A stretch of 32,000 nt of DNA, taken from assembly GCA_963662715.1 (NCBI GenBank), contig OY759724.1, positions 270,001 to 302,000 on the forward strand. The letters are read 5' to 3'. Both the position numbers and the translations under genes were made by a program. The notes under the pieces are model-generated. The model saw only the letters and a list, made by a program, of their open reading frames with translations, had not been told where the DNA came from and made no database searches. Each line of letters begins with the position of its first letter. The first letter of the stretch is position 1. Shown here piece after piece: positions 4,195 through 23,526 of the stretch. The DNA is from Candidatus Omnitrophota bacterium (GTDB lineage: Bacteria > Omnitrophota > Gorgyraeia > Zapsychrales > JANLHA01).

Positions 4195-4556
4195 TTACTG
4201 ATCTTTCATTCCAGCCTTCTCACTATCCTGAAATTCACCTGCTTTCCATAAACCGACTTGCTCAACAATATTCCCTTCTTCATCTTGAAAAATTTTTCTC
4301 CCTTGACCATCAAACTTGTTGTTTTTAAATTCTCCTTTATAAAAAGAACCATTGGCATAAATCATCTTCCCCTTTCCATCGCATTGACCATTTTTAAATT
4401 CGCCTTCATAACGGGAGCCGTCTGCATAGGTAAACACGCCCTTTGACATAAGTCCTATTTTGAATTCTCCCTCATAACGGGAGCCATTCACCAACACAGC
4501 AACACCATTCCCGTCAGGCAAATTATTCTTAAAATCACCTTCATAAATATTCCCTC
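4195..4556 (-). pseudogene. 3' part of a MORN-repeat protein gene split by the IS
   Basis: Four to five ~23-aa repeats of the form xxGxxYEGEFKNGxxxGxG. The repeat frame stays open upstream of the annotated Met (GNIYEGDFKNNLPDGNG) until TGA at 4557-4555, which is IS-derived sequence. Confidence 0.7.
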
Positions 4557-4576
4557 ATTTCGTTTGAAGACATACA
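4557..4576 (+). repeat. displaced terminal 20 nt of the IS right inverted repeat, abutting IRL with a 1-nt spacer
   Basis: ATTTCGTTTGAAGACATACA. The 23-nt tract 4554-4576 (this 20-mer plus the preceding CTC) is identical to the reverse complement of 22742-22764, where it is contiguous with the IS 3' end. Confidence 0.75.
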
Positions 4577-4577
4577 G

Positions 4578-4607
4578 TGTTTCCAGTCAGCAAAATTGAG
4601 ACAAATG
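4578..4607 (+). repeat. IS left inverted repeat (IRL)
   Basis: TGTTTCCAGTCAGCAAAATTGAGACAAATG aligns ungapped with TGTATGTCTTCAAACGAAATGAGACAAATT (22742-22771). Match is 19/30, including the terminal TGT and a TGAGACAAAT block at positions 20-29. Confidence 0.6.
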
Positions 4608-4699
4608 AGCGGATAAAAATAAGAGAGAAATTTTAGGGTTGAGAAGCCCTGATTTCGGCTCCATAATGAGGCTTTAGGCCTCAGGAAAGGAGCAAAAGA

Positions 4700-5032
4700 A
4701 TGAGCAAGCCAAAAGATGTTGTGAAAGAAATCCGCAGGGCAACCCGCCGAAAATTTACCCCAGACGAAAAGATCCGCATTGTGCTGGAAGGTCTTCGGGG
4801 AGATATCCCGATATCTGAAATCTGCCGAAAAGAAGGCATCGCCGCATCCGTTTATTATAAATGGTCAAAAGAATTTCTTGAGACGGGCAAGAATGGTCTA
4901 ACCCGTTCAACAATGAGGGAGGCCACTAGCGATGAGGTGAAAGCGCTAAAGAACGAGAATGCCGATTTGAAGCGGGTGGTGGCGGATTTGACGCTGGATT
5001 TGGTGAAATATAAAAAAAGTCTTGGCATGTAG
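4700..5032 (+). CDS. IS transposase orfA (HTH, Transposase_8-like, C-terminal coiled coil)
   Basis: 110 aa with RRKFTPDEKIRIVLEGL...ISEICRKEGIAASVYYKWSKEF. GGAAAGGAG SD lies upstream. Confidence 0.85.
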   Translation: MSKPKDVVKEIRRATRRKFTPDEKIRIVLEGLRGDIPISEICRKEGIAASVYYKWSKEFLETGKNGLTRSTMREATSDEVKALKNENADLKRVVADLTLDLVKYKKSLGM

Positions 5033-6041
5033 ACGGCGGTACGGTCGCATGAAGGGACGAGATAAACTAGAAATCATTCGGGTGGTGGAATCCTCTGGTT
5101 TAAGCGCAACGAAAACACTAGAAAAGATCAATATTCCACGTGGTACATACTATCGATGGAAAAAGAGGCTCAAAGAACACGGTTATCGAGGGCTTCAAGA
5201 CATGAGGCCCCATCATCGCAGGATGTGGAATCAACTCACACCGGATGAAGAAAATACGATCATGGAAGTTGCGTTATTGAACCCGGAATGGTCAAGCAGA
5301 CAGGTCAGCTTATATATATCTGATCGTTGTGGCTTCAGTATTTCAGAGTCAACGGTCTATCGGCGGATGAAAGCCCACGGATTGATCAAGGAACCAGACA
5401 TCAGGAGATTCCCTGCGGGGAAAGAATATAAGATCAAGACGATCCGGATAAATCAACAGTGGCAAACCGATGCGACTTATTTGAAAGTTGACCGATGGGG
5501 TTGGTTTTATCTGATTAGCGTGCTGGATGATTATTCCCGGAAGATATTGGCTTGGCAGTTGAAGAAATCGATGCGGGCAGAAGACTTCAGTGATGTCGTA
5601 GAGTTGGCCTGTGAATTTTCCGGTATCACCAAAGACGATAAAGAATCTGTCCGGTTGGTGAGCGATAATGGTTCAGCGCTTATTTCAAAAGACTTCGGAG
5701 ATTATCTCGAAGCCAAAGGGTTGGGCCATATCCTGGCCTCGCCGTACCATCCGCGAACGAATGGCAAGATCGAGCGGTTTCATCGAAGCGCCAAGGAGAC
5801 GATTCTTCTGCATGTCTGGGATAGCCCTGAACGGCTTGAGGATGAAATCGCGCGATTTATTCACTGGTACAACTCACGGCGTTATCATGAAGGGATTGGT
5901 AATGTGACACCGGACGATGTTTATTATGGACGGCGTGATCAGATACAAAGACGAAGGCAAAATTTGAAGCAAAAGACTATTCTTGCCAGAAGGAAATATA
6001 ACGGTAAAATAATGAATATTGGAGCTGAAATCGTCTCTTAA
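5022..6041 (+). CDS. IS transposase orfB (HTH + rve DDE integrase core)
   Basis: DDE triad context: QWQTDATYL, LVSDNGSA, YHPRTNGKIERFH. N-terminal region has a second HTH (IPRGTYYRWKKR), as in IS481-type transposases. The frame is open from 5007. Possible starts are TTG 5022, ATG 5049, or a fusion to orfA. Confidence 0.9.
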   Translation: MACRRRYGRMKGRDKLEIIRVVESSGLSATKTLEKINIPRGTYYRWKKRLKEHGYRGLQDMRPHHRRMWNQLTPDEENTIMEVALLNPEWSSRQVSLYISDRCGFSISESTVYRRMKAHGLIKEPDIRRFPAGKEYKIKTIRINQQWQTDATYLKVDRWGWFYLISVLDDYSRKILAWQLKKSMRAEDFSDVVELACEFSGITKDDKESVRLVSDNGSALISKDFGDYLEAKGLGHILASPYHPRTNGKIERFHRSAKETILLHVWDSPERLEDEIARFIHWYNSRRYHEGIGNVTPDDVYYGRRDQIQRRRQNLKQKTILARRKYNGKIMNIGAEIVS

Positions 6042-6058
6042 ATTAAATTGCAATTTGT

Positions 6059-6227
6059 CTCGTGACACAACGCAACGGTCTTTTTCCGTAACCTGTTGAT
6101 TCTCTTTGACTTGCCATGAAATAGGTGCTCCTTTATACAAACTTTTAAATGGTTGATACAGCTCGAAATCTGTAAGCTTTACATCTTCAACTTTGATATA
6201 TCGTACCATCATATCATATTCGTTCAT
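6059..6227 (-). pseudogene. 5' part of the IS-split MORN-repeat gene
   Basis: MNEYDMMVRYIKVEDVKLTDFELYQPFKSLYKGAPISWQVKENQQVTEKDRCVVSR. The rest of track ORF 5874..6227 reads into the IS. It joins in frame to 4554 and downstream once 4557-6061 is removed. Confidence 0.6.
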
Positions 6228-6250
6228 CTCGGCAGATGAACGAATATGAT
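6211..6250. repeat. perfect 18-bp inverted repeat with 4-nt loop spanning the start codon of the MORN gene
   Basis: TATCATATTCGTTCATCT cggc AGATGAACGAATATGATA. The ATG at 6227-6225 lies inside one arm. Confidence 0.8.
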
Positions 6251-6344
6251 AAAATTGTCTACAACTGAATAAGATGCAATATGTTATATTAATTTTACTG
6301 AGTCGTCAAGGTTGGCTCTTAATGTAGGTGAGCATATTAATTTA

Positions 6345-8021
6345 TTAAACGTGTTCGTTACTTAAAAGCGAATAAATTTTATTTTTGATATCCGGGATTA
6401 AAGCTGGCTGAACGCTAAAATTTCTGATCCCAATATTTAACAGCTCCTCAGTAAAATTCTGATTTCCGGCTAGTTCACCGCAAATACAGCACTCTTTACC
6501 ACAATCCTTTGCTTTTTGAATGGCCGTTTTCAAAGCAGGCAGAATTAATTGATTTCCGGCTTCATAATAATCTGAAACATCAAGTTTTTCTCTTCCAGCG
6601 GCCATCACATATTGGACCAAATCATTGGTTCCAAAACTTATAAAGTCACATTGTTCAAGAAGTTCATCAATGCACATAAGGGACGCGGGTGTCTCAATCA
6701 TTGCACCCAAAGGGACATCTGCATTAAAGGGAATACCGTCTTCCGCAAGCCTTTGCTTCTCTTGCGCAAGATACTGTCTGACCGCCTTCACGTCCTTAGG
6801 CAGCGAAACCATTGGAATGACTATATGAACATTAAATTTTTTGCGTAACCTTAAAAAAACACGAAGCTGCAACTCCAATAAACGAGGATATTTTAGCAGA
6901 AAGCGAATGCCATTTAATCCCAGGGCAGGGTCTTTCAAATCAATAAAGTTTAAAAAAGGCAAAGATTTGTCTCCTCCAATATCAAGCAGACGTAAATAAA
7001 TATTTTGTTCTGATAAACAATTTAAGGTTTTTGTTAATTTCCGAAAAAGCTCATCTTCCGTTGGAAGATTATTTTTCCCCATATAAAAAGGCTCCGTCCG
7101 ATAAAGTCCAATGCCGTCGGCTTTAAAACTTTTAGCCAACTGAAATTCACTATATGATGATACATTAGCGTACACTCGAACAGGCTGGCCGTTCTTCTCA
7201 AGTGAAACTCCTTGTATTTCTTGAATTATTATTTTTTTTGATTTTAACCGCTCCTGGATCAAACGGGGATAGGATTTAAGTTCTTCCTGTGTTGGATTAA
7301 TTATTATCTCTCCATTATCGCCATCAACGGCAACTTTATGATCCGAAAGAAAAGCACCGTTCGTAATATTTATTTTTGCTACAAAAGGTATATCTAACGC
7401 CCGGGCAAGTATTGCGGCATGAGAATTTTGCGTCCCCTCAATCGTCACAATAGCTTTAGCATTTTTTATATTCAGCAACGCCGTATCCGAAGGAAGCAGT
7501 CTTTGTGCAAAAATAACGGCATCTTTAGGAAGGGTTGTTAAGTCATTCTTATTAACACCCAAAAGAACCTTGAGCAGGCGTTTACCGACATCGACAATAT
7601 CATTCGCCCGATCTTGGAAAACATTGTTTTTAGCGCCGCGTAATTTCTGCTCATGCCGCTGAAAAACATTTTGAACAACTTGCTCCACATTTAACAGCTT
7701 GTTTTTTATCTCATCTTCAATCTCTCTAATAAGACTAATATCCCTCAACATCATTTGATGGGCACCAAATATCTCAGCATGTTTTGCATCAATATTCGAG
7801 GTTACTTGAGATTTTAAACTAGCAAGATCATGATGCGCCTTGTCTATGGCGCTTTTTAACCTATGGACTTCACCCTCAACTTGATTTTCATTAATATTCA
7901 TAAATTCAAATTCCCGAGTCAAAATATCCTGGTAATAAAAAATATGTCCAATTGCAAAGCCCGTAACGATAGTCTCTCCGTTAAAAACAATTCGATCTGA
8001 AAAATTTTCGGTCATAATCAC
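6345..8021 (-). CDS. ptsI: phosphoenolpyruvate-protein phosphotransferase (PTS enzyme I family), no GAF domain
   Basis: 558 aa. Phospho-His region GTQNSHAAILARALDIPFV, PEP-binding TIM-barrel motifs GIGLYRTE and FISFGTNDLVQY. Confidence 0.85.
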   Translation of the reverse strand: MIMTENFSDRIVFNGETIVTGFAIGHIFYYQDILTREFEFMNINENQVEGEVHRLKSAIDKAHHDLASLKSQVTSNIDAKHAEIFGAHQMMLRDISLIREIEDEIKNKLLNVEQVVQNVFQRHEQKLRGAKNNVFQDRANDIVDVGKRLLKVLLGVNKNDLTTLPKDAVIFAQRLLPSDTALLNIKNAKAIVTIEGTQNSHAAILARALDIPFVAKINITNGAFLSDHKVAVDGDNGEIIINPTQEELKSYPRLIQERLKSKKIIIQEIQGVSLEKNGQPVRVYANVSSYSEFQLAKSFKADGIGLYRTEPFYMGKNNLPTEDELFRKLTKTLNCLSEQNIYLRLLDIGGDKSLPFLNFIDLKDPALGLNGIRFLLKYPRLLELQLRVFLRLRKKFNVHIVIPMVSLPKDVKAVRQYLAQEKQRLAEDGIPFNADVPLGAMIETPASLMCIDELLEQCDFISFGTNDLVQYVMAAGREKLDVSDYYEAGNQLILPALKTAIQKAKDCGKECCICGELAGNQNFTEELLNIGIRNFSVQPALIPDIKNKIYSLLSNEHV

Positions 8022-8038
8022 CGCTCATCTTTTTAATA

Positions 8039-8515
8039 TTAAATAGTTTTTTTTGAACACTCGTTCAATCGCTTCTCGAGTTCCGCAACCTTTTTACGAA
8101 GATTGTCGATCATATTCTGGTCAGTAACATCTTTAAAAGTAATGATGATTAACTTCGTTCGGTTGGCTTCCATAACAAACCGGCAGGCATTAAGTAACAT
8201 TGCCCTCTTCCCGATACCAGGAAAATCATGTTCGACTTCAAAGTTATCAAAACTCTTATTTTTAGGAAGAATGTCTTCCAGTAAATGCCTAAGTTTTGGA
8301 ATGTCCCACTGACCATCGCCCAATTCATAAATAAACTCTTCTTCGGTCTCTTCAGGAACTACGCCAAAAGTCTGATAGAAAGCGCGATTGGCTAAGGCCA
8401 CCTTTAAATCTCCATACAAAATGATTAAGGGATTATGCACGGTATTAATAATACGGTCTGTGTATCCAAATGCATCTGCGGTTGCCAACTCATTCATTTT
8501 TTCTTTGTAGCTCAT
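8039..8515 (-). CDS. stand-alone PAS-domain protein with C-terminal coiled coil
   Basis: 158 aa. NPLIILYGDLKVALANRAFYQTFGV...IYELGDGQWDIPKLRHLLEDILP...FEVEHDFPGIGKRAMLLNA resembles the PAS module found after CheB/CheR fusion proteins. Stops 17 nt before the enzyme I start. Confidence 0.75.
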   Translation of the reverse strand: MSYKEKMNELATADAFGYTDRIINTVHNPLIILYGDLKVALANRAFYQTFGVVPEETEEEFIYELGDGQWDIPKLRHLLEDILPKNKSFDNFEVEHDFPGIGKRAMLLNACRFVMEANRTKLIIITFKDVTDQNMIDNLRKKVAELEKRLNECSKKTI

Positions 8516-8941
8516 GTTTTATCTCCATTCATTAAAGTAATAATTTTAGACTTACTTGAAACGAGCTAATGCCATATTTGCCTGAGCATCAAAAATTTTT
8601 TGCGCAGGAACTACCGCAGCTACGATGTTTTCTATCTGTTCTTTTTGAGTACGTTGCTTCCTGACTTTCTGGATAAGCTGCTATGACATCCCTAATATAA
8701 ATTGAAAGCCTCTTTTAAGTTATTATTCGAATAATGCTATTTATATGCCACCGCATAGGCTTGAGCAGATTTGGGAAATTTTTTGATTTTGGTTTTCATA
8801 ATTTTTCCTCTATTTCCCCTTTTTGGATCTAACCCTATCAGAATTCGATTATACTTCATTAAAATTCTTATAATACGGCTTCTCAGTACAATTTTTCTCC
8901 TGAGAAACGTATAGTTGCTATTTGAAACTTGGCATCGACAT

Positions 8942-10903
8942 TTATATTTTCAACAATTTATTCTTCTCCGCATATCGCAAGACGGTCCAGACATAAGCGG
9001 AGTGACTCCACGTGAGAGGCGAAACACAAAGAGGTGAACCAGTTGTCGGGTGAACCTGCTCGGCAAGCACCCCGGACGGAAGCGCATTTTTTCTGCACCA
9101 TTCAAAATAAGGAAGAGTTGCTTGAAGCTGTTCTTGGCTTTCGGCCTGATCGATAAAATATTCTGCTAACCAGAGCGTGGAAATAAACCACGGATTTCCG
9201 GGAATATCTTTTGGACAATCAGCTGTGCGCTGATACACATCCCCTTGGTATCTGGCACATCCTTCAACAGGTGTTTTGAGCCATAACTGATCCCGCACAG
9301 AATTAACGGTCTCAATCATTCGCGAATCTTTGGGATTCAAAACTCCAAGAGTTGCCAAGCTTAACAAACTGATATCAATTACTTCATCAAGCTCATAACC
9401 CCCTTCTACCCTTGAAGCGGAACGGGCATATCTTTTTAAGCTATCATGATAAAGATGTTCCTTAATCCCCCCCACGATTTCATCAGCCACAGCATCATAC
9501 TTTTCAGCCAGGGAAGCGTCTTGAAAAAGTTTTGCAAAATTAGCCGCGGCTCTTAAGCCCGCAATCACTGAGGCCGCCGTATATGCGTGCAGGGCATAAC
9601 GTTCTTCCCAAAGATCATAAGATGGTAACGGCAATAGCGTCTGAGGATCCCGGTAACTGACGAGAAAATCGGCTGCCTTTAGAATAAGGTCATTGTAAAG
9701 AGGTCTAACATATTCTATATCTTTTAAACTCTCATAGTGAATCCAAAGAGCCCATAAAGTTAAAGCCGTTGAGTCTTCCTGTATCGGGAGAACCTCTTTG
9801 CCGTCAATTAACCAAGAATGCCAATTACTAGCAAGAGATCCATCTGGATTGTAATGCTGAAATAAATAACCTTCGTCCGTTAAAACACGGGCGCAGAAAT
9901 CAAAATATTTCATACACGCATGCGTATAACCGGCCTTTGCCAAAGCAGCAGCGACAAAAGCTCCGTCTCGGCCCCACATATATGAATAAGTATCTTTCCC
10001 AAAACGAATAATATCAGAATCATTGGCGGCAATAATAGCTCCGTGATTATCAATTTGGGTTCTTAAGATCAACAGACTTCGGTCAAAAATGTCGGTTACA
10101 GATTTGGGCAAGCATTGGAGGTCTAACGAATCTTTGCCTACCCATGTCTTCCAGTATTGCAACGATCGTTTGAGGAGATCTTCAGGTGTTTTCTCATGAA
10201 CTTCCAAATTAAGCTTGGCGACTTCCGGATAAGTCATCCCCGCTGCTATCCAATAATAGGTCGTTGTTGTCCCTTTCGCAGGCAAATCCAGCCACATGCC
10301 GATGGTAGAATGCGGCGATCCCCACGCACAGGCCTCTCCACTAAGTTCTCCGTTTTCTGTTTCTTTTACTGTTTCCAAATCTCCCGTCACCTCTCTTCTT
10401 CCACATGCAAAATGCTGAACTCCCCACTTGTCATGAGCCCAGCAACTAATCAAAAAATACCGATGAATTTTGTAATGGATTATCGAACAGCTTCGAGGAT
10501 CAAAATAAGCAGTACCTCCAATATCATTTCCATAAAGATTGAATTCATGACTGAAGAAAATACGAACTTCTCGGGCTTTATCTTTTAGATTATTTACTTC
10601 GATTTTTTTGATGTAGATGTTTAAATCCAAATCGATCACATCCGAACATCGGATTTCTAACTCCAAGGTTTCATTCTTTAAAAAAACATCCGTCACAAGA
10701 CTTTTATCTTGATATCTTAAATCCTTTTTCCACTCGCGCTCTATCCTTGAATATTGACCATCCACCCATATGCCAAAGATAAAAGGTTGTCCACTTGAAT
10801 GATTTTCCTGTCCGATAAAAGGATAATAAATATCACGAATTTGATAATTCGAATCAAAGTTCAGAAGAAAAGATCCATTACTTACAGGGATGTCTTTTGG
10901 CAT
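8942..10903 (-). CDS. GH15-family glycoside hydrolase (glucoamylase/trehalase-like)
   Basis: 653 aa with an N-terminal beta-sandwich domain and an (alpha/alpha)6 domain. Motifs YMWGRDGAF and YDLWEER. Confidence 0.85.
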   Translation of the reverse strand: MPKDIPVSNGSFLLNFDSNYQIRDIYYPFIGQENHSSGQPFIFGIWVDGQYSRIEREWKKDLRYQDKSLVTDVFLKNETLELEIRCSDVIDLDLNIYIKKIEVNNLKDKAREVRIFFSHEFNLYGNDIGGTAYFDPRSCSIIHYKIHRYFLISCWAHDKWGVQHFACGRREVTGDLETVKETENGELSGEACAWGSPHSTIGMWLDLPAKGTTTTYYWIAAGMTYPEVAKLNLEVHEKTPEDLLKRSLQYWKTWVGKDSLDLQCLPKSVTDIFDRSLLILRTQIDNHGAIIAANDSDIIRFGKDTYSYMWGRDGAFVAAALAKAGYTHACMKYFDFCARVLTDEGYLFQHYNPDGSLASNWHSWLIDGKEVLPIQEDSTALTLWALWIHYESLKDIEYVRPLYNDLILKAADFLVSYRDPQTLLPLPSYDLWEERYALHAYTAASVIAGLRAAANFAKLFQDASLAEKYDAVADEIVGGIKEHLYHDSLKRYARSASRVEGGYELDEVIDISLLSLATLGVLNPKDSRMIETVNSVRDQLWLKTPVEGCARYQGDVYQRTADCPKDIPGNPWFISTLWLAEYFIDQAESQEQLQATLPYFEWCRKNALPSGVLAEQVHPTTGSPLCVSPLTWSHSAYVWTVLRYAEKNKLLKI

Positions 10904-12078
10904 AATGTCCTTTCGTCTATAATCTGTTGATACAACTCTGCATATTTTCCGGCCATACTAGCGATTGAAAAATTATCTTTAATGTGACGACGACAGTCAC
11001 TGGGACTTATTTTGGAAATTATTTTAAACGCTTCAAGCATATCCTGCATTGAATCCAAGACGAAACCTGTTTTTCCATGAATAACAATTTCCGGTACTGA
11101 GCCTTTATTAAACGCCAATACCGGCGTCCCGCATGCCATAGATTCAATTAAGACAAGTCCAAAAGGTTCACCCCACTGAACAGGAAAAAGTGTTGCTTGG
11201 GCGTGACTGTACCATAGTTTCTTTTGTTCACTATCAATTTCTCCGATATAAATAATTTGTTCTCCTGAATTGAGAATAGGTCTCATAACTTTCTTATAAT
11301 AATCGTTACCAACAAAAGGTCTGTTAGCGTCAGTCACAAAATCAATTGATTTTTCTAATTTCCTAAAAAATACCCGGTCTTTTGTTTTATTCTGGACATT
11401 TCCGGCAAGAATAAGCTGGGAATCTGTTTTCTTTGCAATCTCTATGGCTTTATCTTGCCCTTTATCTTGAGTGATTCTTCCAATCGAAAACAGATAGTCC
11501 TGTTTGCCAGCATTGCTTTTGAACGGATAATCTTCGACATCAATGCCATGATGAATAACCTTTTGCCCATTGACTAAGCCCCGGTGTTGCTTTCTTTGAT
11601 ATTTGCTAATCGGGACAAAATATGCACTAGAAAAAGAATTGAGCGATTCATTCCAACGCTTAAACGACCCTTTTTCTTCTGCCGGGACATGGAGGGTCAT
11701 AACAATCGGCAAAGGACTTTTAAAAACACCTTCAAAAATATATTCTGCCATACACGCATCGTGCATATGGATGATATCAATATCACCTTCTTTTGCTCTT
11801 TGAAGCGACGTAGCAAGATGTTCTCGCATTTGTCCCTGCTGTTTACGAGTGTTTTTGCTACAATATTCGCTGAAGCCATTCTCAATGGTTGTAAAATGTT
11901 CCCCAATAACTGACGAATCACCAGAACAGGCAACAATCGAACGGTGACCCAGTTTATGTAACCCTTTGTCAATGTTATAAATAACCGTCTCAATTGGCCC
12001 ATAACCCAAATCCTGTCTAATTGGCCTGTTTAACGTTGCGATATGGAGTACTGTTATCTTTTTTGTAGTTTTTATCAT
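10882..12078 (-). CDS. GT4-family glycosyltransferase
   Basis: 398 aa with GEPFGLVLIESMACGTPVLA (E-x7-E region). Overlaps the GH15 start by 22 nt and the helicase tail by 62 nt. Confidence 0.85.
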   Translation of the reverse strand: MIKTTKKITVLHIATLNRPIRQDLGYGPIETVIYNIDKGLHKLGHRSIVACSGDSSVIGEHFTTIENGFSEYCSKNTRKQQGQMREHLATSLQRAKEGDIDIIHMHDACMAEYIFEGVFKSPLPIVMTLHVPAEEKGSFKRWNESLNSFSSAYFVPISKYQRKQHRGLVNGQKVIHHGIDVEDYPFKSNAGKQDYLFSIGRITQDKGQDKAIEIAKKTDSQLILAGNVQNKTKDRVFFRKLEKSIDFVTDANRPFVGNDYYKKVMRPILNSGEQIIYIGEIDSEQKKLWYSHAQATLFPVQWGEPFGLVLIESMACGTPVLAFNKGSVPEIVIHGKTGFVLDSMQDMLEAFKIISKISPSDCRRHIKDNFSIASMAGKYAELYQQIIDERTLCQKTSL

Positions 12079-13300
12079 TTGATATTTTTTTCTTATTTGC
12101 GTTAATAAGTTTTATTTTTCTAAATTCTTGTTTAGTTTTTCTGTGAGAGGCATTATCATTATTTTTAACAAATTCAGAACTAGAAAAGTTTGGATGTTTG
12201 GAGCGGGGCAATGTCATTTTTATTAATTTCTCGATTTTGTTAATATCGTGGCTTTGTGCCGGTGTCGCTAAAGTTGCGGAATGTCCTTCTTTTCCGGCCC
12301 GTCCGGTTCGTCCTATCCGGTGCACGTAATTCTCCACATCATCAGATAAGTCATAGTTAACTACTAATTCTATCATCTTAACATCAATGCCTCTGGCGGC
12401 AATGTCCGTGGCCACTAAGACACGGTATCGGCCACGCTTAAACCCTTCAATAGCCTGGTTTCTTTGTCCCATAGAGCGGTTAGAATGGATTTCCGTCGAC
12501 TTAATCCCAAACGCCCGGATATTACGGGCCACGCGGGAAGTTTTATGTTTTGTTCGTGTAAAAACCAACACCGGCCCGCGGTATTGATCCAATAGCATCT
12601 TTAAGACATTATTTTTCAAAGATTCCTTCACAATAAACAGCTCTTGCGAAATATCTTTAACAGTCGTTCCTGACGGGGCAATTTCAACAGTGATCGGTAA
12701 CAGCATATGCTTCGTTGCTAACTTCAAAATATCCGGCGGCATCGTTGCCGAAAAAAGTAAAGTTTGTTTTTTATTGGTAACACACCGTAAAATACTTTCG
12801 ACCTGCGGCGCGAACCCCATATCGAACATCCGGTCAGCTTCATCCAGCACAACGACATGTACTTTTCCCAGATCTATCGTCGCCCTATAAATATGATCGT
12901 TCAGTCTCCCGGGAGTAGCAATAATAACATCGGGATTTCTTTTAAGGCTCGATATTTGTCCAGGCATTTTAACTCCGCCGATTAATACAACACTTCGCAT
13001 CGTGAATGACTTTAAGAATGGACTCAAAGCTTCTTCAATTTGCAAAGCTAATTCTCGCGTAGGAACAAGAATTAAAGCCTGCCCGCCTTCAGATGCCAAA
13101 CGCTGAATAACCGGAATACCAAACGCCATGGTTTTGCCTGTACCTGTTTGAGCGACACCTATGATATCTTTCCCCTCCAAAGCGACAGGAATGGCTTTAT
13201 GTTGTATGGGCGTCGGGGCGATAAATTTTAACTTATTTAATACTTTTAGCATTTCGGGCGCGATGCCTAAATGATAAAATGTTACATTTGATTGACTCAC
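12017..13300 (-). CDS. DEAD-box ATP-dependent RNA helicase with Lys-rich C-terminal tail
   Basis: Q motif PTPIQ, AQTGTGKT, DEAD, SAT, HRIGRTGRAG. Confidence 0.92.
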   Translation of the reverse strand: MSQSNVTFYHLGIAPEMLKVLNKLKFIAPTPIQHKAIPVALEGKDIIGVAQTGTGKTMAFGIPVIQRLASEGGQALILVPTRELALQIEEALSPFLKSFTMRSVVLIGGVKMPGQISSLKRNPDVIIATPGRLNDHIYRATIDLGKVHVVVLDEADRMFDMGFAPQVESILRCVTNKKQTLLFSATMPPDILKLATKHMLLPITVEIAPSGTTVKDISQELFIVKESLKNNVLKMLLDQYRGPVLVFTRTKHKTSRVARNIRAFGIKSTEIHSNRSMGQRNQAIEGFKRGRYRVLVATDIAARGIDVKMIELVVNYDLSDDVENYVHRIGRTGRAGKEGHSATLATPAQSHDINKIEKLIKMTLPRSKHPNFSSSEFVKNNDNASHRKTKQEFRKIKLINANKKKISNDKNYKKDNSTPYRNVKQAN

Positions 13301-13349
13301 AATTCCTCCAAAACGTTTTGTTTATTTTAATATCTTTCCATTGTATAAT

Positions 13350-13499
13350 TTATTTCAAAGTTTCTCCCCGATGGACATTACAATATTCTTCAGAATTATA
13401 AATACTCAACCGCTGTTTACATCCTAACTTTTTACATACTCGTCCACTCTTAAATATTTTAATCTTGCCAGTTTTCTTTGTTTTTCGAGGATGCTTCAT
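13350..13499 (-). CDS. 49-aa basic Zn-ribbon-like microprotein, coupled to infA
   Basis: MKHPRKTKKTGKIKIFKSGRVCKKLGCKQRLSIYNSEEYCNVHRGETLK has a Cx4C...Cx2H pattern. Its ATG begins 2 nt after the infA stop. Below the track length cutoff. Confidence 0.4.
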   Translation of the reverse strand: MKHPRKTKKTGKIKIFKSGRVCKKLGCKQRLSIYNSEEYCNVHRGETLK

Positions 13500-13501
13500 A
13501 T

Positions 13502-13726
13502 TTAGTTTTTGTGCCTAAATGTTATTCTGCCTTTGCTTAAGTCATACGGTGAAAGACCTAGCGTTACCCGGTCTCCGGGGATAATCTTAATAAAAAACTT
13601 CCTCATCTTTCCAGCCGGATAAGCAGTAACCATGTGCCCGTTTTCTAATTCGACCAAAAACTTCGCGTTAGACAACGCTTTCGTGACGATTCCTTCAACT
13701 TCGATAGCATCTTCTTTAGTCATCAT
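13502..13726 (-). CDS. infA: translation initiation factor IF-1
   Basis: 74 aa with [63 protein letters not shown]. Confidence 0.95.
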
Positions 13727-13743
13727 GAAATCCTGTTATGTTC

Positions 13744-14052
13744 TTAATACCTTCTTTCCCCTCTAAAATTATTGTTCCGAGGATTTCCTCTTCTCCCTCC
13801 ATGCGAACTTCTATTCATCTGAGGCCGGGCTTCATTAATTGTAATTCTGCGGCCCTTAATTTCCGTGATGCCCTGCATCGCGGCTTGCGCTTCTGTTCTA
13901 TTTGGCATTTCTACAAAACCAAAGCCTTTAGAATCCCCTGTAAATTTATCTCTGATGATCTTAACAGATTCAACGTGCCCGAAGCCTCCAAACACTTCCT
14001 GCAAATCATCTCCCGTAACATCATATGAAAAATTACCGATATAAATGTTCAT
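13744..14052 (-). CDS. RRM-type RNA-binding protein with Arg/Gly/Asn-rich tail
   Basis: RNP-2 IYIGNF, RNP-1 KGFGFVEM. Confidence 0.9.
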   Translation of the reverse strand: MNIYIGNFSYDVTGDDLQEVFGGFGHVESVKIIRDKFTGDSKGFGFVEMPNRTEAQAAMQGITEIKGRRITINEARPQMNRSSHGGRRGNPRNNNFRGERRY

Positions 14053-14078
14053 TTCTAAAACTCTCTTTTTTTCTAATT

Positions 14079-14153
14079 TTATTTTTTTTTGTCTTTTTTG
14101 GCCTGCTTCTGTTTATTGCTTTTCGTCTTATCCTTCTTTCCCTTATCTCCCAT
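14079..14153 (-). CDS. possible 24-aa Lys-rich micro-ORF
   Basis: MGDKGKKDKTKSNKQKQAKKDKKK, preceded by AAAGGAG with 7-nt spacing. No other support. Confidence 0.25.
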   Translation of the reverse strand: MGDKGKKDKTKSNKQKQAKKDKKK

Positions 14154-14191
14154 GAGTATTCTCCTTTATGTCGCAGTTATGATTATTATAA

Positions 14192-14394
14192 TTAGCACCG
14201 TCTAATATTAATCGCATCCGCATTAGATCCACCGCCTATTCTTTCAAACCAAACCTGATCTCCGGTTTTTAGACTGCTCCTGTCTCTTCCCACAATATTT
14301 TGCTGTTATTAAAACTGATGATCCAACCCTGCATGTCTGCAATAGTCCCGCCATTGTTATGGCCGGTTATGCTTCTTACTTTCCCCTTTTCTAT
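14192..14394 (-). pseudogene. degraded cold-shock-domain-like paralog (ATA in place of start codon, plus frameshift)
   Basis: AAAGGAG SD followed by ATA GAA AAG GGG AAA GTA (IEKGKVRSITGHNNGGTIADMQGWIISFNNSKILWEETGA). The sequence continues in another frame as LKTGDQVWFERIGGGSNADAINIRRC. Length is 203 nt, not a multiple of 3. Confidence 0.4.
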
Positions 14395-14415
14395 TTATCA
14401 CTCTCCTTTAAAATA

Positions 14416-14688
14416 TTAGTCATAAGAACAATACAAACTGTTCAGATCATATTCTATCTCTTCAATATCATTTTGATGATCTTTTTTTATATATGGACGA
14501 ATGTGAAATGCAAGGCGTCCTTTATAAGACGACTGTATTTCAAATTCAACTTCCTGCCCTTCCATTAATTCAGCGAAAGGTATTTCCCATAAACAGTCCT
14601 TATGAAAATGAAGTTCTTCTCCAATGTCTGCATTTATCTTTCCATATTCTTTATCGTGAAATAATTTCGAGATGGTCCCCACCTGCAT
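14416..14688 (-). CDS. cold-shock-domain-like (OB-fold) small protein with acidic C-terminal extension
   Basis: GTISKLFHDKEYGKINADIGEELHFHKDCL...EGQEVEFEIQSSYKGRLAFHIRP follows the CspA pattern GxVKWFNxxKGFGFI...VFxH...L.EGQxVxF. Confidence 0.6.
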   Translation of the reverse strand: MQVGTISKLFHDKEYGKINADIGEELHFHKDCLWEIPFAELMEGQEVEFEIQSSYKGRLAFHIRPYIKKDHQNDIEEIEYDLNSLYCSYD

Positions 14689-14704
14689 AATATGCCTTTC
14701 TATA

Positions 14705-14904
14705 TTAAGCCTTCCTTATATTGATTGCGATATGGATGTTTTTAATATTATCGACTTCAAAAAAAAACTGAATCCCCTTGAACTAGACCGATCCCTTTCT
14801 ATAATACTCGCAGCATAAAATCTGACATCTACATCTGATGCGCGACTTATTGTTCCCAGGCCACAACTTTTATCATACGATTTGATAATGCCCTTCTCCA
14901 TCAA
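14705..14904 (-). pseudogene. cold-shock-domain-like paralog interrupted at an A9/T9 homopolymer (pseudogene, phase-variable, or sequencing error)
   Basis: MEKGIIKSYDKSCGLGTISRASDVDVRFYAASI... One extra T in the T9 run (plus-strand A9 at 14759-14767) would give ...FFFEVDNIKNIHIAINIRKA*, which parallels VEFEIQSS..LAFHIRP of the neighbouring paralog. Confidence 0.5.
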
Positions 14905-15321
14905 TAGACCCCCTGAAGCGATTATCCATATATGATTCTTTTAAAAAAAATCCAAAACAAACTTAGCTTTAATCCATTAATCGTAAAGTTAATAAAATAA
15001 TAACCTAAAGCCGACCGTTATTTTATCAACCTATCCTATCAATGATGAACTTTCACAAGCTAGAAACCGACATTACAAAACCCCTTCTCTCCAGCTTGGT
15101 TTTTGTCCTCATCTCCAAGATAACACGATCCGGCATGACATAATGAGCTTCTTTAAAATTTTTAAAAAATAAATAGATGAGAATTATGGCAGACTGCCAA
15201 TAGGAATGTATGGTGAGGCCTGTCTTTGGTGGGATATCTATTCAAATTTTATGTTATAAGTATAACATTATATAGAAGCAATAACTATGATTATTTTTGG
15301 ATGGCGAGTTATCTTGAGCGC

Positions 15322-16896
15322 TCAATTGGATTCCTTTAAATGCTTTTTAGCTTCCTTGAGTTTATCTATAAATGGGCCCTTTTTAAATTCTGAAAACCAC
15401 CCCTTTACAACAAACCATCCCGCGAAACGAACAAGGGTATTTCTCCAGGGACGATACCACTTTTTCCACCCCAAGCGAATATTATACAAAAAGAAAATGA
15501 GGGTGGGGAAAAAAAATATATTCAAGCCTATTACAAACACATATTTGAACTGATAGAATTTGCCCATAATCTTCTTTACGGAGTAAAGCATTTCTTCAGC
15601 GGTCATAGGCGCATCTGGTTCAAATACAGGAAAATTGCCATCATAATATTCCCAGCCCACATCTTGTTTCGGGTAAATTCTATTTTGTTTTTTTAAGCGA
15701 TTCCGCAATTCTGTTCCTGGTAAAGGAACCGGCAATAAGACTTGCAGTGTGTCAATTTTTGCTTGTCGGATAAACCTTCTAAAATGCTTTATTCTTTCTT
15801 GAGCTGTCATATGAAAACTTATATTTTCCTTCATCGGATAACCAAAAATAAACATGCCATGGACCAAAAAACCGGACTTATGAAAGAGCCTCGTTAAGTC
15901 GACCATGCCTTGAGGCTTTATATGTTTATTCATGGCGTTCAATTCTTCTTCTATGGGCGATTCGTAACCGATAGCCACCATGTTTATCCCCGCTTTTCGC
16001 ATCGCCGTTAGTAATTCTGTATCTTTAGCTTTATCCAATCGAATCTGAGCCGAAAAATCCAACCTTTTACCAATGCTTTTTTGATAGTGTTCAAGCATTT
16101 GGCAAAATCGTATTGTCTCATTGCGCTGCTGTCCGAACAGATCGTCGACGATAAAAAAATGTCTGGCATCTTTGGTTTCCAAGAGAAAACTAATCTGCTG
16201 AAGAAGCCTCTCCGGTGTCGCAAACCGGGGCTTACCTTTAACGGTGCAAAACTCGCAATTCATGCCACACCCCCGTATTCTTTCCACGGGGTAAACCTTG
16301 ATTTTTGCATACCGCACGAGAGAAAAATCCGGCAGAGGCAGTTTTTCAAAATCGGTCAGCAAAATTCTTTTTTCAGTGATAACGACTTTTTCTTTGCTTT
16401 TGTATGCTATTCCTTTTATTTTAGGTAAATCTGTTTTAGTTTCCAACGCATGGATAAGCTCTTTTATAGTCTCTTCCCCTTCACCGATAACCACATAATC
16501 AATATGCGAATTCAACGCTTCTTCAATATTTTCATCAACAAAGTGTTGCCCGCCTGCGATAGTAATAATCCCCTTGTTTTTATAAAAACGGGCAATATTA
16601 TACAGTCGTGGTATTGTGCTGGTTAATCCGCCATACAATCCAACAACATCCGCTGGTCTCAGTTGTTGCAACAATTCATGGTCAGCCCCTATTGGGGGAC
16701 TTTTGGGGCCATATCGACGAAGATTATTTTCATCAATAACCTCAACATCCCATCTTTCCATTTTATTAACAACACTGGCAATAGACACAGGTCCTAACGC
16801 AGTCGTTTTATTAGCAATATTTGAATAAATATTAAACGTCGGAAAAGCCGGAATGACGATTCTGAATCTGTGTCTTTTCTTTGATTTATTTAACAT
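15322..16896 (-). CDS. class-B (B12-binding domain) radical SAM enzyme with hydrophobic C-terminal segment
   Basis: 524 aa. N-terminal Rossmann-like B12-binding region (VVGLYGGLTS, IITIAGGQHF), CGMNCEFC CxxxCxxC cluster, and C-terminal YVFVIGLNIFFFPTLIFFLY followed by a Trp/Arg-rich amphipathic tail. Confidence 0.85.
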   Translation of the reverse strand: MLNKSKKRHRFRIVIPAFPTFNIYSNIANKTTALGPVSIASVVNKMERWDVEVIDENNLRRYGPKSPPIGADHELLQQLRPADVVGLYGGLTSTIPRLYNIARFYKNKGIITIAGGQHFVDENIEEALNSHIDYVVIGEGEETIKELIHALETKTDLPKIKGIAYKSKEKVVITEKRILLTDFEKLPLPDFSLVRYAKIKVYPVERIRGCGMNCEFCTVKGKPRFATPERLLQQISFLLETKDARHFFIVDDLFGQQRNETIRFCQMLEHYQKSIGKRLDFSAQIRLDKAKDTELLTAMRKAGINMVAIGYESPIEEELNAMNKHIKPQGMVDLTRLFHKSGFLVHGMFIFGYPMKENISFHMTAQERIKHFRRFIRQAKIDTLQVLLPVPLPGTELRNRLKKQNRIYPKQDVGWEYYDGNFPVFEPDAPMTAEEMLYSVKKIMGKFYQFKYVFVIGLNIFFFPTLIFFLYNIRLGWKKWYRPWRNTLVRFAGWFVVKGWFSEFKKGPFIDKLKEAKKHLKESN

Positions 16897-17145
16897 TATT
16901 AGGATTTAATTTTTGTAAATATCAGCTTTTCTTATATCAATTTTGGGCAGCTAGGACTTTTGTGAATTGGGTGGATTAAAAAAACTCTAGACCCAATTCT
17001 AAAAAAAATTTGTATAACCAAATTAATTTCAACTATTTATAGCATTTATCAGCCTCAGCAGTATTTCACCGTAGTGATACGTACGGTCAGCCCACAAATT
17101 TTTAGATAAATTTTTTTCATAAGTATTGAGGTTAATCTATATATT

Positions 17146-17716
17146 TTAAAAATCTATCATAAATGTCTTTCTCATCAAATAATGAGGGATCCTTGATGGC
17201 TCCCCCGGCCGCCGGCGTAATGATCCCGTATCCACATGGATACCAATTGCCAAAGCCGTAGCCACATCAGGCGTGGGAACAATACCGTTCTCCTGTAAAT
17301 ACAAGGCAATAATCGTCGAGGAAGCACCGTATTCACTTCGGATATCAAGAAAGTCAACATCGTCCGGCTTGACTCCCAGGTGATGGTCGATGACGCCTAT
17401 GACCGTTCCCCGTTCGCTAGCAACATTGTCATTACCCTTGCAGCCGTCAACAATGATCACTTGATCTTCTTCCTTAATATCGGCACCTTCCACGTTTCGC
17501 ATGACAATACCCAGGATCTTTAACCATACGTTCAATGGGATTGGTCTGCAACTCTCCTTCATATAGGATCGATGCCTCGATCCCGTTCTTTTTTAAAAAA
17601 TACTGCAACCCGAACGCCGAAGCTACAGCATCAGGATCCGGAAAATCATGAGTCTGTATTAAAACAGCCTTGTCTTTGTTTAAAACGTGAAGTAATCTTT
17701 GTGATTTTGTATTCAT
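17146..17716 (-). pseudogene. DHH-family phosphoesterase (NrnA-like), frameshifted near 17523-17535 and lacking a DHHA1 domain
   Basis: ORFs 17474..17716 and 17146..17562 join as ...NPIERMVK / ILGIVMRNVEG.... Motifs HDFPDPDAVAS, IIVDG and VIDHH are present. The protein ends ~190 aa in, and no DHHA1 region follows. Confidence 0.7.
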
Positions 17717-17753
17717 AAGAACTTACCGGTATTCTTTCTATCCTTTTATCTTC

Positions 17754-18178
17754 TTATTTCCCCTGATTAATCACCGTATTAGTCGCCTGTTTCAGCGTTT
17801 CTTCATCTGCCAGATAATATGATTTTAACGGTTTTAATGTTTCATCCAGTTCATAAACCAGGGGGATACCTGTAGGTATATTTAAATTGACAATATCTTT
17901 ATCGGAAATATTATCTAAATATTTAACCAACGCTCTTAAACTATTTCCGTGTGCAGAGATGATTATTCGTTTGCTTTCACGTAAATAAGGTTCGATATCG
18001 CTATGCCAATAAGGCAAAAATCTGTTTACCGTATCTTTTAGGCTTTCACAGTGTTTCCTAAATATCAATCATTTTTCTTACATGCCCATATCTAGCCTTA
18101 GCTATTTTTTCCATAGTCATCCTGCGTATCTTCTCCATACGGTCATCCAAACACTTTAAGATATACTTTTTTACTCAT
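17754..18178 (-). pseudogene. gpmA: 2,3-bisphosphoglycerate-dependent phosphoglycerate mutase relic (C-terminal ~100 aa only)
   Basis: [13 protein letters not shown]...[52 protein letters not shown]...NQGK matches the GpmA C-terminus. The N-terminal ~150 aa with the RHGES catalytic motif are missing. Only ~110 nt separate the relic from the fetB stop. Confidence 0.75.
18055..18148 (-). repeat. copy A of a ~90-nt imperfect direct repeat flanking fetAB
   Basis: Shares the identical cores TTCCTAAATATC (18055-18066) and CATAGTCATCCT (18112-18123) with copy B, in the same order and with similar spacing (57 vs 52 nt). Additional matches ATATCTA, TTAGC and CCAT(A)CGG.CA.CC. Confidence 0.5.
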
Positions 18179-18180
18179 AG

Positions 18181-18966
18181 TTATATAAAAATGTCTTGAT
18201 TCAAAGTACCGTACTTTGAGAAACAAACACGTAACGTCAGAAAAATGGTGAGAAAAACACTTGTAATAGTACTAACCACAATTCCTATCATAATCATAAT
18301 TTGATATTTAATAGCCACTTCAGGGCTCGTTCCTCCTAATATAACACCTGTCATCATTCCTGGTAGGGCTACTATCCCCATAGTTGCCATTGATGCAAGC
18401 GTTGGTTTAAGAGCAAGTTGAACACTTTCTCTCAAATAGGGTAAAATAGCTTCGTTGAAAGTTGCACCGAGAGATAATGTGTATAGAAACCTTTTTGTGT
18501 CTTTTTTGATATTTTTATAAAAAGCGGAAATGCCGATAATATTGCCTCTTAAAGAATTACCCAGAAGCATTCCCCCGAGAACGATCAAATATCTGGCGTC
18601 AAAAATATAATCAAGTCGTATGACAAATATGTTGATATAAAAAATAACCGCAAATGTTGCTATAGCGAATGATATAAAAACCGGCACAAGGATTTTACCC
18701 GGCTTCATCGAAGATCCGCGAATAGCCGAAAAAACCGCTACTAAAATCATCACAATAAGCCATGATAGGTTAATATAAGCTTTATTCCATAAAAACAGAT
18801 ATTTCAAAAACACACCGATAAGAACAAGCTGAACGGTCATCCTGCCGGCGGAAGTCAAAAGCGGTTTAATAAGGTCGAGGCCGTAAAGACGGCTTAAAAT
18901 AACCGGGACAGCCAACAATAAGAATGCTAATAACAGCGAATATACAGAAATATCTATTGTTTCCAC
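18181..18966 (-). CDS. fetB: ABC exporter permease, FetB/YbbM (UPF0014)-like
   Basis: 261-aa multi-pass membrane protein. Overlaps the upstream ATPase gene by 13 nt. Confidence 0.75.
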   Translation of the reverse strand: METIDISVYSLLLAFLLLAVPVILSRLYGLDLIKPLLTSAGRMTVQLVLIGVFLKYLFLWNKAYINLSWLIVMILVAVFSAIRGSSMKPGKILVPVFISFAIATFAVIFYINIFVIRLDYIFDARYLIVLGGMLLGNSLRGNIIGISAFYKNIKKDTKRFLYTLSLGATFNEAILPYLRESVQLALKPTLASMATMGIVALPGMMTGVILGGTSPEVAIKYQIMIMIGIVVSTITSVFLTIFLTLRVCFSKYGTLNQDIFI

Positions 18967-19592
18967 GTTTTTTTCTCCAGATCGAAAACTTTCACATTAG
19001 GATTATCCAGCCATACAGCGTCATGTGAGATGCTGACAACCGTCCAATCCTTTCGTTCTATAAAAAAATCAGCGGTCTTTTTCTTGAGATTCTTATCCAA
19101 AGCTGATGTCACCTCATCCAAAAGAAAAACATTCCGTTCTAATAAAACAGAAACTATTATGGCTACCCTCTGCCTCTCCCCGCCTGAGAGGTCGGAAATA
19201 TCTTTAGCAAGCAGATCACGGCTTAGTTCAAAGAAATCCATTAATTCGCCTATTCTTTCCTCACTGAAATTCAGAACATGATTCGATTTTATCCCGGCAA
19301 CAAAAGAAAACCAATCCGAGACTTTATAATCGCCTAAGCTGACATCTTGATCAACAAACGCTACTTTTTCCCTTACGTGCCAGATTGTGTGTTCATCAAC
19401 AAGCGCCTCATCAAAAAGCACTTTCCCGCTTTGAGGCTCCACGAAACCAAGTACAAGACCAAAAAGCGAGGATTTGCCAAGGCCGGATCTACCTAAAAGG
19501 ACAACCTTCTCACCTTTAGCGATCTCACAAGAGAAATCGTTGAAAATCACCTTGCCGTCAAAATCTAACTTTATTTTTTCATACCTAATCAT
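18954..19592 (-). CDS. fetA: ABC transporter ATP-binding protein, FetA/YbbL-like
   Basis: Walker A GRSGLGKSS, signature LSGGERQR, Walker B VFLLDE. Confidence 0.8.
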   Translation of the reverse strand: MIRYEKIKLDFDGKVIFNDFSCEIAKGEKVVLLGRSGLGKSSLFGLVLGFVEPQSGKVLFDEALVDEHTIWHVREKVAFVDQDVSLGDYKVSDWFSFVAGIKSNHVLNFSEERIGELMDFFELSRDLLAKDISDLSGGERQRVAIIVSVLLERNVFLLDEVTSALDKNLKKKTADFFIERKDWTVVSISHDAVWLDNPNVKVFDLEKKTWKQ

Positions 19593-19644
19593 ATTGCTTT
19601 TCTACTCCACCAACGTCGCGGCGAGCGACATTTCTATCAAGGTA

Positions 19645-19730
19645 TTCCTAAATATCCTCAATATTTTATATATCTATATCTATTAGCAATTTTCATCATA
19701 GTCATCCTATAAGCTAGCCATCGGCCAGCC
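19645..19730 (-). repeat. copy B of the ~90-nt imperfect direct repeat flanking fetAB
   Basis: TTCCTAAATATC at 19645-19656 and CATAGTCATCCT at 19697-19708. See copy A. Confidence 0.5.
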
Positions 19731-19769
19731 GTAGGTTTTCAGAAATATTTTCTTGTATTTTTATTCATA

Positions 19770-22037: not shown

Positions 22038-22741
22038 TTTCTTCCGCTTGTTGCTATTTAATTAGTTTTAATAATTTTACGATTCTTTTCTCCTTAATCT
22101 CCTTCAAAGCCTTGATTTCTATTGGTAAGCCATGATCAAATATTTCTTGAAGCTCTTTGTAAAACATATTGAAAAATATCTCAAGATAGAAAAGAAGGAC
22201 ATATATTTATTCTTAAAAAAAATTGATGGCCTCTGAATCCCATAAGAGGGAAAATCAGGTATTAATATAAAAATCACCACTAACAGCAGGTTCGTCAACA
22301 TATATTGTAGGTGAAAATTTTTCTTTTCTTATCTTTACACAGTCACCACGGAGAGTTTTTTAATAGCGCTTCTAAATTGGTATAAAACACATCTATCTAA
22401 ACGGCCTTCTTTTTATGAGCATTGTTGAACAGGTGATCTCTTCTTCAAGATTATGATACTCTTCTTTCTGTTTTCGTATATACCCCTCAAACAGCTCTTT
22501 TTTATGTGGATACTTCAACATTAATTCGTGACACCTTCTCTGTATGTCTTGATACTATTTTTCATATTCATTTTTATCACTTATTTCATCACTGAGATAT
22601 TCCTTGATAATTTCCATATCAGCCGTTTTTATTTGGTTTGTCAGTTCCTTCTTTGTTCTAATTATCGCATGGGTAGAATCGTTACTTTCTTTCATATACC
22701 CATCATCGAGTATGATGATACCATTGTCGCATAATAGCGGT

Positions 22742-23049
22742 TGTATGTCTTCAAACGAAATGAGACAAATTGCAATTTAATTTAAGAGACGATTTCAGCT
22801 CCAATATTCATTATTTTACCGTTATATTTCCTTCTGGCAAGAATAGTCTTTTGCTTCAAATCTTGCCTTCGTCTTTGTATCTGATCACGCCGTCCATAAT
22901 AAACATCGTCCGGTGTCACATTACCAATCCCTTCATGATAACGCCGTGAGTTGTACCAGTGAATAAATCGCGCGATTTCATCCTCAAGCCGTTCAGGGCT
23001 ATCCCAGACATGCAGAAGAATCGTCTCCTTGGCGCTTCGATGAAACCGC
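22742..23049 (-). mobile_element. 3'-terminal fragment (~308 bp) of a second, inverted copy of the IS
   Basis: 22762-23049 matches 5774-6061 in reverse complement, with a single substitution by eye (AAT to GAT, N to D). It additionally carries the 20-nt IRR tip (22742-22761). Its 5' side ends abruptly inside orfB. Confidence 0.85.
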
Positions 23050-23526
23050 ATACTTCCGAGCGATATACTTGATTTTCTTCCATCTTCTCAGAGCATAAGG
23101 CTGAACATCACATTGAGGGCCGAAATAATTCTTGCACTCTTGAAGAACCATATCACAGAGGTCTGCTTGGATACCTCGAATGAAGGAATGGATGTGAACA
23201 CCCCTCCTTGACGTATTCCGCTCGCAAATCACAAGGCAATGGATATATCGCTCATAAAACTTCTTGTAATCACGGTTGAGGTACTTGAAGAAATGCTTGT
23301 ACGCATCCTTAGCCTCGGTCTTACCCGTCGCCCTCGGGAAAGTCATCGTTGCGTACAAATCGAAAGGCCCCAGTTGCTTAATCAGCTTGCCGAATCCCCG
23401 TATTCGGTCGTATCTGCTTGTCGTTTCCAACGCTTGCAGTTTTAACAGCTCTAACATATAAAATCCCCTCAAGGGTGATGATTCATCACGCCTAAATGAC
23501 TGCATCCAATGTATGTATGTCACCAT
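23050..23526 (-). pseudogene. HUH-type rolling-circle replication initiator (Rep) relic, C-terminally truncated by the IS fragment
   Basis: Motif I-like FDLYATMTF, HUH motif GVHIHSFIRG, and Tyr motif IKYIARKY at the breakpoint, spaced ~45-50 aa apart. The last 17 codons of track ORF 22999..23526 are IS sequence. Confidence 0.55.

Follow-up and report, generated by a model that had tools for sequence, protein, structure and literature searches.

A circularly permuted insertion sequence that retains an abutted IRR-IRL junction in a Candidatus Omnitrophota genome

Minicircles and tandem dimers in which the right and left inverted repeats (IRR and IRL) of an insertion sequence (IS) meet at a junction are established for members of the IS3, IS30, IS21 and IS256 families (PMC9333248). 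In IS2, an IS3-family element with TG...CA ends, the functional minicircle junction has a spacer of exactly 1 bp, and each inverted repeat (IR) combines a terminal domain for cleavage with an inner one for protein binding (PMC3299598). We report a 1.5-kb IS at positions 4554–6061 of a 32,000-nucleotide stretch of DNA from a Candidatus Omnitrophota bacterium (GCA_963662715.1, contig OY759724.1, positions 270,001–302,000; hereafter the window), in which a complete element is circularly permuted and the IRR tip meets IRL across a single G. It shares TG...CA ends and a 1-bp spacer with the IS2 junction. The latter, however, is free, short-lived and reactive; its IRs are complete and its junction promoter depends on a 17-nt spacing. 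The window junction, by contrast, is fixed in the chromosome, has 20 nt of IRR beside it and carries no detected sigma-70-type junction promoter. Tandem dimers and IR-targeted insertions (IS30, IS911, IS3, IS150 and IS21) likewise place a head-to-tail IRR-spacer-IRL arrangement in a chromosome or plasmid (PMC9333248). They differ in having two complete ends and in being unstable, as the transposase resolves them at the tips; in the window copy nothing but a 20-nt tip is left of the upstream partner, and both outer joints fall within IRR. Non-canonical joints with 2–4-nt microhomologies near or into IS ends accompany the loss of ISApl1 from Tn6330 and the IEE-stimulated excision of IS629, and such IS loss has been proposed to result from strand switching that microhomology guides during copy-out (preprint 10.1101/2023.06.07.543989). 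Those events delete the IS, whereas the event at this locus left a complete, permuted one.

In the window, a 1504-bp IS is present as an exact circular permutation with one added G, and the opening lies inside IRR. The canonical order consists of 4578–6061 (IS positions 1–1484) followed by 4557–4576 (IS positions 1485–1504), with the break at 1484|1485; all features of this copy are given on the plus strand. The body of the copy halts at ...CAATTTGTCTC (6061), 20 nt before the true end of the IS. The 20 nt absent from the right end, which are the terminal 20 nt of IRR, are found at 4557–4576, followed by G4577 and then by IRL (TGTTTCCAGTCAGCAAAATTGAGACAAATG, 4578–4607; IS positions 1–30). Across the junction (4566–4584) the sequence reads ...GAAGACATACA-G-TGTTTCC..., so that the IRR and IRL tips are abutted with a short spacer; the G lies outside TGT and ACA, where bases are unconserved in relatives. 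The junction-side IRR is incomplete, being limited to its last 20 nt, and the inner IRR block (6052–6061, IS positions 1475–1484, AATTTGTCTC), which includes the conserved ATTTGTCTC motif and with which the copy ends, is 1.5 kb away. CTC is present at both edges (4554–4556 and 6059–6061), the left one corresponding either to IS positions 1482–1484 or to flanking sequence. The IS content is complete, the only extras being one G and the ambiguous CTC. Upstream of IRL there are merely 20–23 nt of any upstream copy, and not the second full copy of a tandem (IS)2 dimer. The exact complementarity of the two IS pieces requires a single break in a template that was circular or tandem, and not independent truncations.

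The ends of the IS, TGTTTCC... and ...GAAGACATACA, are imperfect TG...CA inverted repeats, as in the IS3 family. Aligned without gaps, IRL and the reverse complement of IRR agree at 19 of 30 positions, including TGT and a 10-nt block, TGAGACAAAT; only 3 of 63,940 30-mers in the window score at least 19 matches, IRL itself among them. We built the canonical 1504-bp sequence (TGT...ACA reading) and aligned it by BLAST to relatives. Alignments to relatives with 67–73% amino acid identity extend through position 1504, and 14 of these read ...TTTGTCTCAyTTTTGCTGAAGACrTACA and then diverge at once. On the left, the flanks of relatives that retain upstream sequence diverge right before TGTTTGCC, that is, before the TGTTT with which IRL begins. 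About 30 more distant relatives also begin with TGT, followed by ..C.GTCAGC and a GGGAC/GAGAC block some 20 nt in, which is mirrored at the right end before ACA. The best matches in the genome and metagenome scans, which do not include the source genome, have 67–70% amino acid identity, and the contig of the closest relative (L162, 84.6% nucleotide identity) ends at ...ATTTGTCTCATTCAGTCTGAAGACATACA. The canonical relatives (L001, L081–L086 and L162, from Planctomycetota, Omnitrophota and Sedimentisphaerales) share with the window copy the same two-gene layout (orfA/orfB), an A7G run and the IR pattern TGTTTsC...GTCTCA...TGAAGACrTACA. They are ~1504–1531 bp long and, unlike the window copy, are in canonical order wherever both ends are present. 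Some related loci show irregular ends of other kinds: L002 (1850–1870) has an IRR without its last 7 nt, L085 (after 1520) has an inverted IRR-tip-like sequence 14 nt past its own IRR, and in L121 (3–34) an IRL-like 16-mer directly abuts IRL.

A partial copy of the same IS (22742–23049, minus strand; IS positions 1197–1504) is inverted with respect to the full copy and has an intact, contiguous IRR. It is identical to 5774–6061 at 287 of 288 positions, the sole mismatch being at 5961 (A versus G), and to 4554–4576 at all 23 positions; this 23-mer, CTC plus tip, occurs at only these two sites in the window (0.00 expected by chance). Its 3′ end reads ...CAATTTGTCTCATTTCGTTTGAAGACATACA, after which unrelated DNA (ACCGCT...) begins. 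Thus ...CAATTTGTCTC and ATTTCGTTTGAAGACATACA, which lie at opposite sides of the full copy, are contiguous here. The single difference in 288 nt, together with the open state of both IS genes, indicates that the event was recent. A first-pass annotation of this DNA had reported the contiguous IS 3′ end of the partial copy, the 19/30 agreement of its reverse complement with 4578–4607, the displacement of the missing 20 nt to 4557–4576 with G4577 before IRL, and the CTC at both edges, and we recovered each of these in the raw sequence. Its interpretation, that the IS has TG...CA termini, was opened inside IRR and kept an IRR-tip-G-IRL junction, is supported by the relatives; copies beginning ATTTCG... 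and ending ...TTTGT, which it named as the observation that would make those the true termini, were not encountered across more than 40 relatives.

Both flanks are truncated. On the left is a MORN-repeat open reading frame (ORF; 4195–4556, minus strand; Pfam MORN, E = 2e-21), which is open to the junction and has no native start. The encoded protein (P0001) has an exact match on the source contig only, with the next homologues 40–50% identical; no close homologue of the ORF was found in 5.8 billion clusters, and no further MORN fragment occurs within the window. C4554 probably belongs to a MORN Gly codon and T4555 fits poorly with the Asn/Asp codon that precedes Gly in other MORN repeats, although both arguments are weak and the left CTC is ambiguous between IS and flank. 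On the right is a 139-nt fragment of an ORF of unknown function (6063–6201, minus strand) without a Pfam, NCBIfam or PHROG match, which has its 3′ side cut by the junction. It has 92% nucleotide identity to positions 689–827 of an unrelated metagenome contig (L161), where the matching stretch is interior to a longer ORF (P0049) that continues ...VVS-LLPTAGRW...; a second homologue (P0244, on L165) continues ...VVT-LKRTVDRW.... The window fragment lacks this natural continuation (L..T..RW...) and is cut exactly at the junction. Positions 6059–6062 are CTCG in the window versus ACAA or TCAA in both homologues, from which it follows that the right CTC is IS sequence and that G6062 belongs to neither IS nor flank, the next base being A in the IS and in the flank homologues alike. 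The right-hand CTC, judged by these comparisons, cannot be demonstrated as target microhomology. Either chromosomal DNA was lost in the event or the site had been rearranged beforehand. The synteny with the nearest PtsI relatives (85% identity) is lost near position 6245 and, given also what the flank homologues show, the empty site cannot be reconstructed. A join of the flanks at one CTC gives an in-frame ORF of 175 residues, but the idea that they are halves of one MORN gene was rejected, as the right flank is interior to a different ORF in two homologues. A sequence at 19.7 kb that resembles the P0049 tail was likewise rejected as the lost half of the right-flank ORF, since it and the fragment share the fragment's end, and it is a decayed copy in its own right.

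In normal IS3-type integration, a minicircle is cut at both tips to give flank-TGT...ACA-flank. Neither joint of the window copy is at a TG or CA tip, which excludes normal strand transfer. Other transposase routes were followed on paper and rejected, namely autointegration, cointegrate formation, nested insertion accompanied by CTC duplication, and intramolecular deletion or inversion that starts at a dimer junction. All of them leave IS tips at the new joints, unlike the sequence; cutting by a type IIS enzyme at GTCTC also fails to give the observed joints. The balance of evidence tips slightly towards a transposase-independent event, in which a unit-length circle or tandem unit containing IRR-G-IRL was joined to the chromosome inside IRR. 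The precursor would be a unit-length form of the IS with its ends abutted, such as a double-stranded copy-out/paste-in minicircle, one repeat of a head-to-tail tandem, or a circle excised from such a tandem by homologous recombination. It would have been opened by a break or template switch at IS position 1484|1485, a point 20 bp within IRR that separates the conserved inner block from the catalytic tip. Illegitimate joining by the host, either as end joining or as replicative template switching, would then have attached both ends to the chromosome. The left joint would involve 0–3 nt of homology and the right joint none, with one extra G and loss of chromosomal DNA, and the outcome would be a complete, circularly permuted copy. 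Homologies of 0–3 nt and a 1-nt filler are marks of illegitimate end joining or replicative template switching. To the more specific proposal, that the copy is a fossil of a minicircle with a 1-bp spacer, captured whole by host illegitimate joining 20 bp inside IRR, we assign slightly less than an even chance. The first-pass annotation had suggested the capture of a circle or dimer junction at a CTC microhomology. This mechanism is plausible but only partly supported: its implicit premise of a single recognisable target does not hold, the flanks being truncated pieces of unrelated ORFs, and on the right side CTC cannot be demonstrated to be target microhomology.

Several points weigh against an origin by joining of a circular or tandem form. 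The right junction lacks microhomology and carries G6062, for which neither IS nor flank accounts. As the flanks are truncated pieces of unrelated ORFs, the event was no clean insertion; no empty site is present in public data, and the earlier contiguity of the flanks is not demonstrable. A sigma-70 scan across IRR-G-IRL finds no junction promoter, although promoter rules in this host may differ. Neither a second abutted IRR-IRL junction nor another permuted copy turned up among 162 related loci and the viral contigs searched. Finally, the evidence comes from one assembly only.

One alternative would be that the copy is canonical, with ends at ATTTCG... (4557) and ...AATTTGT (6058) and CTC as a 3-bp target duplication, the partial copy then holding an end-CTC-start junction. 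CTC repeats do flank a ~1.5-kb unit, and 3 bp is a common target duplication length in the IS3 family. However, all relatives are contiguous through ...GTCTCAyTTTkGyTGAAGACrTACA, diverge only after ACA and start at TGT, and the proposed ends share no inverted repeat, compared with 19/30 and a 10-nt block for TGT...ACA. With more than 40 relatives refuting these termini, we give this explanation virtually no credence. A repeat wrongly resolved during assembly is also very unlikely. IS copies are classic sites of misassembly and a single assembly is at hand, but the novel joints share at most 3 nt with the canonical joints, for which an overlap or k-mer assembler would have needed supporting reads. 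In addition, the insert is an exact permutation, neither a collapse nor an expansion, and the source is a single contig of 3,360,633 bp.

Two further alternatives accept the termini but build the junction differently. An IS could have inserted beside a resident IRR, giving IRR-G-IRL, with separate deletions later removing all of the resident copy but its terminal 20 nt, as well as the last 20 nt of the new one. IR-targeting, known for IS30 and IS911, makes chromosomal IRR-IRL junctions (PMC9333248), IR-like fragments lie by IS ends in L121, L142 and L085, the IRR tip is truncated in L002, and an IRR-tip-like 12-mer occurs near the partial copy. The two unrelated deletions would nevertheless have to stop at the identical IRR position, after CTC, and sum to one IS, a coincidence of about 1 in 10^3, which makes this route quite unlikely. 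An origin by two inversions from a tandem at 22.7 kb (truncated copy 0, G, full copy 1) appears improbable as well. In its first step, CTC at the 4.55/6.06-kb site would join illegitimately with the inverted GAG in the IRR of copy 0, and the resulting inversion would place tip-G-copy 1 at the left locus; in its second, a RecA-dependent inversion at the 288-nt inverted repeats would restore the orientation of 6062–22741, so that the end without a tip comes to lie at 6061 and the intact IRR at 22742. An inverted repeat of the copy's final 288 nt does exist 16.7 kb away (99.7% identical), an inversion on paper would turn the permuted copy into a canonical one preceded by tip-G, and the presence of the partial copy would be explained. 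Against this, the scheme needs a tandem precursor, a 16.7-kb inversion mediated by 3 nt and then a second inversion, and it still requires the prior adjacency of both flanks. The ORFs of at least 90 residues are almost all on the minus strand, both inside and outside 6062–22741, and the GC skew is uniformly negative across both segment boundaries, the IS itself excepted. This uniformity of gene orientation and skew indicates that the present orientation is undisturbed, and a history with no inversions is the simplest. Two inversions are possible but costlier, and the same two illegitimate joints would still be needed.

The inverted repeats have a consequence whatever their history. Homologous inversion of 6062–22761 would, on paper, yield a canonical full IS, with a complete IRR followed by ACCGCT... 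and preceded by tip-G. The left-locus joint of this inversion isomer would read ...GTCTCATTTCG...ACA-ACCGCT, with GAGACAAAT as the inner IRR block, and a tip-less fragment would be left beside the right-flank ORF fragment. The 288-nt repeat thereby makes a 16.7-kb segment with housekeeping genes potentially invertible, and its inversion would toggle the IS copy between a dead and a transposition-competent form. In its present form the copy has intact genes, yet it cannot move itself, because the right end is without the CA-3′ tip and the tip beside IRL is without the transposase-binding part. The inner block ATTTGTCTC is presumably this part, as the analogy with IS2 and IS911 suggests. Separation of the putative binding block from the terminal 20 bp by the break would account for an inert fossil junction.

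The element is an IS of the IS3/IS481 DDE superfamily. orfA (4700–5032, plus strand) encodes a 110-residue protein with a helix-turn-helix domain (HTH_Tnp_1, 3.7e-14), and orfB (5022–6041, plus strand; first ATG at 5049, 330 residues) encodes a DDE (rve) transposase (Pfam rve, E = 6.3e-22) with its own N-terminal helix-turn-helix domains. Such overlapping, consecutive orfA and orfB are characteristic of the IS3 family. OrfB scores 177.7 bits against the NCBIfam IS3 profile (NF033516), above the cut-off of 160, and 189.1 bits against that of IS481 (NF033577), below the cut-off of 224, though the match spans 2–282 of the 284 profile positions; the separate orfA departs from the single-ORF organization of IS481. 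An A7G slippery run is present at the orfA/orfB overlap (5012–5019, plus strand). However, orfB is in the +1 frame relative to orfA, both in the window copy (5012–5049) and in its closest relative, L162 (346–376), whereas relatives of 67–70% identity and more distant ones use this A7G motif with orfB in the canonical −1 frame. In the window copy, slipping by −1 at A7G leads to a stop after 12 codons, while removal of one A gives a 446-residue OrfAB fusion, and the programmed −1 frameshift at A6–7G that is typical of the IS3 family does not apply here. The change of frame is attributable to a 1-nt deletion right after the orfA stop, relative to L086. Expression may proceed via transcriptional slippage, for which IS1447 is a precedent (PMC6211511), or via OrfB alone, which spans the full IS481-type profile. 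A promoter-like site, TTGAGA-17-CATAAT, is located upstream of orfA (4639–4667, plus strand). The IS has a GC content of 45.1%, compared with 39.3% for the window. Among the flanks inspected by eye of relatives with both ends present, a 3-bp direct repeat was seen in one only (L105, cag/cag), and the window has no doubly flanked canonical copy.

Minicircle junctions are short-lived, and as a rule only PCR or engineered systems reveal them, whereas a junction frozen in a genome gives a spacer length and end sequences for an IS of an uncultivated lineage without experiment. The locus suggests a rarely considered fate of IS circles. If the copy is a minicircle fossil, IS minicircles can enter chromosomes independently of transposase, leaving an immobilized copy with intact transposase genes and a preserved junction sequence. 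The permuted copy is also a trap for annotation: its intact genes and the CTC...CTC edges mimic an element with a 3-bp IS3-type target duplication, and automatic pipelines would accordingly assign the wrong termini and miss its immobility. A full-text literature search of limited extent returned no report of such a permuted IS copy. We regard it as a rare rearrangement product assembled from known components, a single-locus curiosity and no new system.

Near the partial copy, a 12-mer (22541–22552, TGTATGTCTTGA) agrees with the IRR tip TGTATGTCTTCA in 11 of 12 positions and, in the same orientation, is 189 nt away from the intact IRR end; 0.3 matches are expected at one mismatch. It could derive from an older end, represent an IR-like target, or be due to chance. 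On the other side, the partial copy cuts the 3′ end of an ORF (22999–23526, minus strand) that weakly resembles replication-initiation proteins (PF23343, 22 bits, below the cut-off; phrog_3584), which suggests an old integrated plasmid-like or phage-like element.

The region to the right of the full copy (6063–6258), just downstream of ptsI, resembles a graveyard of foreign DNA, in which a 25-nt hairpin (6205–6229/6234–6258) is followed by the 139-nt ORF fragment. In L161, the neighbour of the homologous stretch is an IS200-type transposase. The window gave no hit in Rfam and tRNA scans. Two decayed intergenic copies of the P0049/P0244-type 3′ tail, with a core of TACGGYTGRCCG..TGG and a short MTMEKIA-like reading, are present on the minus strand, at 19640–19740 and 18050–18140. 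One of them follows a UvrA-like gene and the other a neighbouring gene; neither matches an Rfam family. The corresponding tail is at 833–890 of L161 and at about 400–480 of L165. By the names of its PtsI homologues, the host appears to lie close to Candidatus Omnitrophota or Auribacterota. The source contig also carries a second PtsI paralogue (76% identity).

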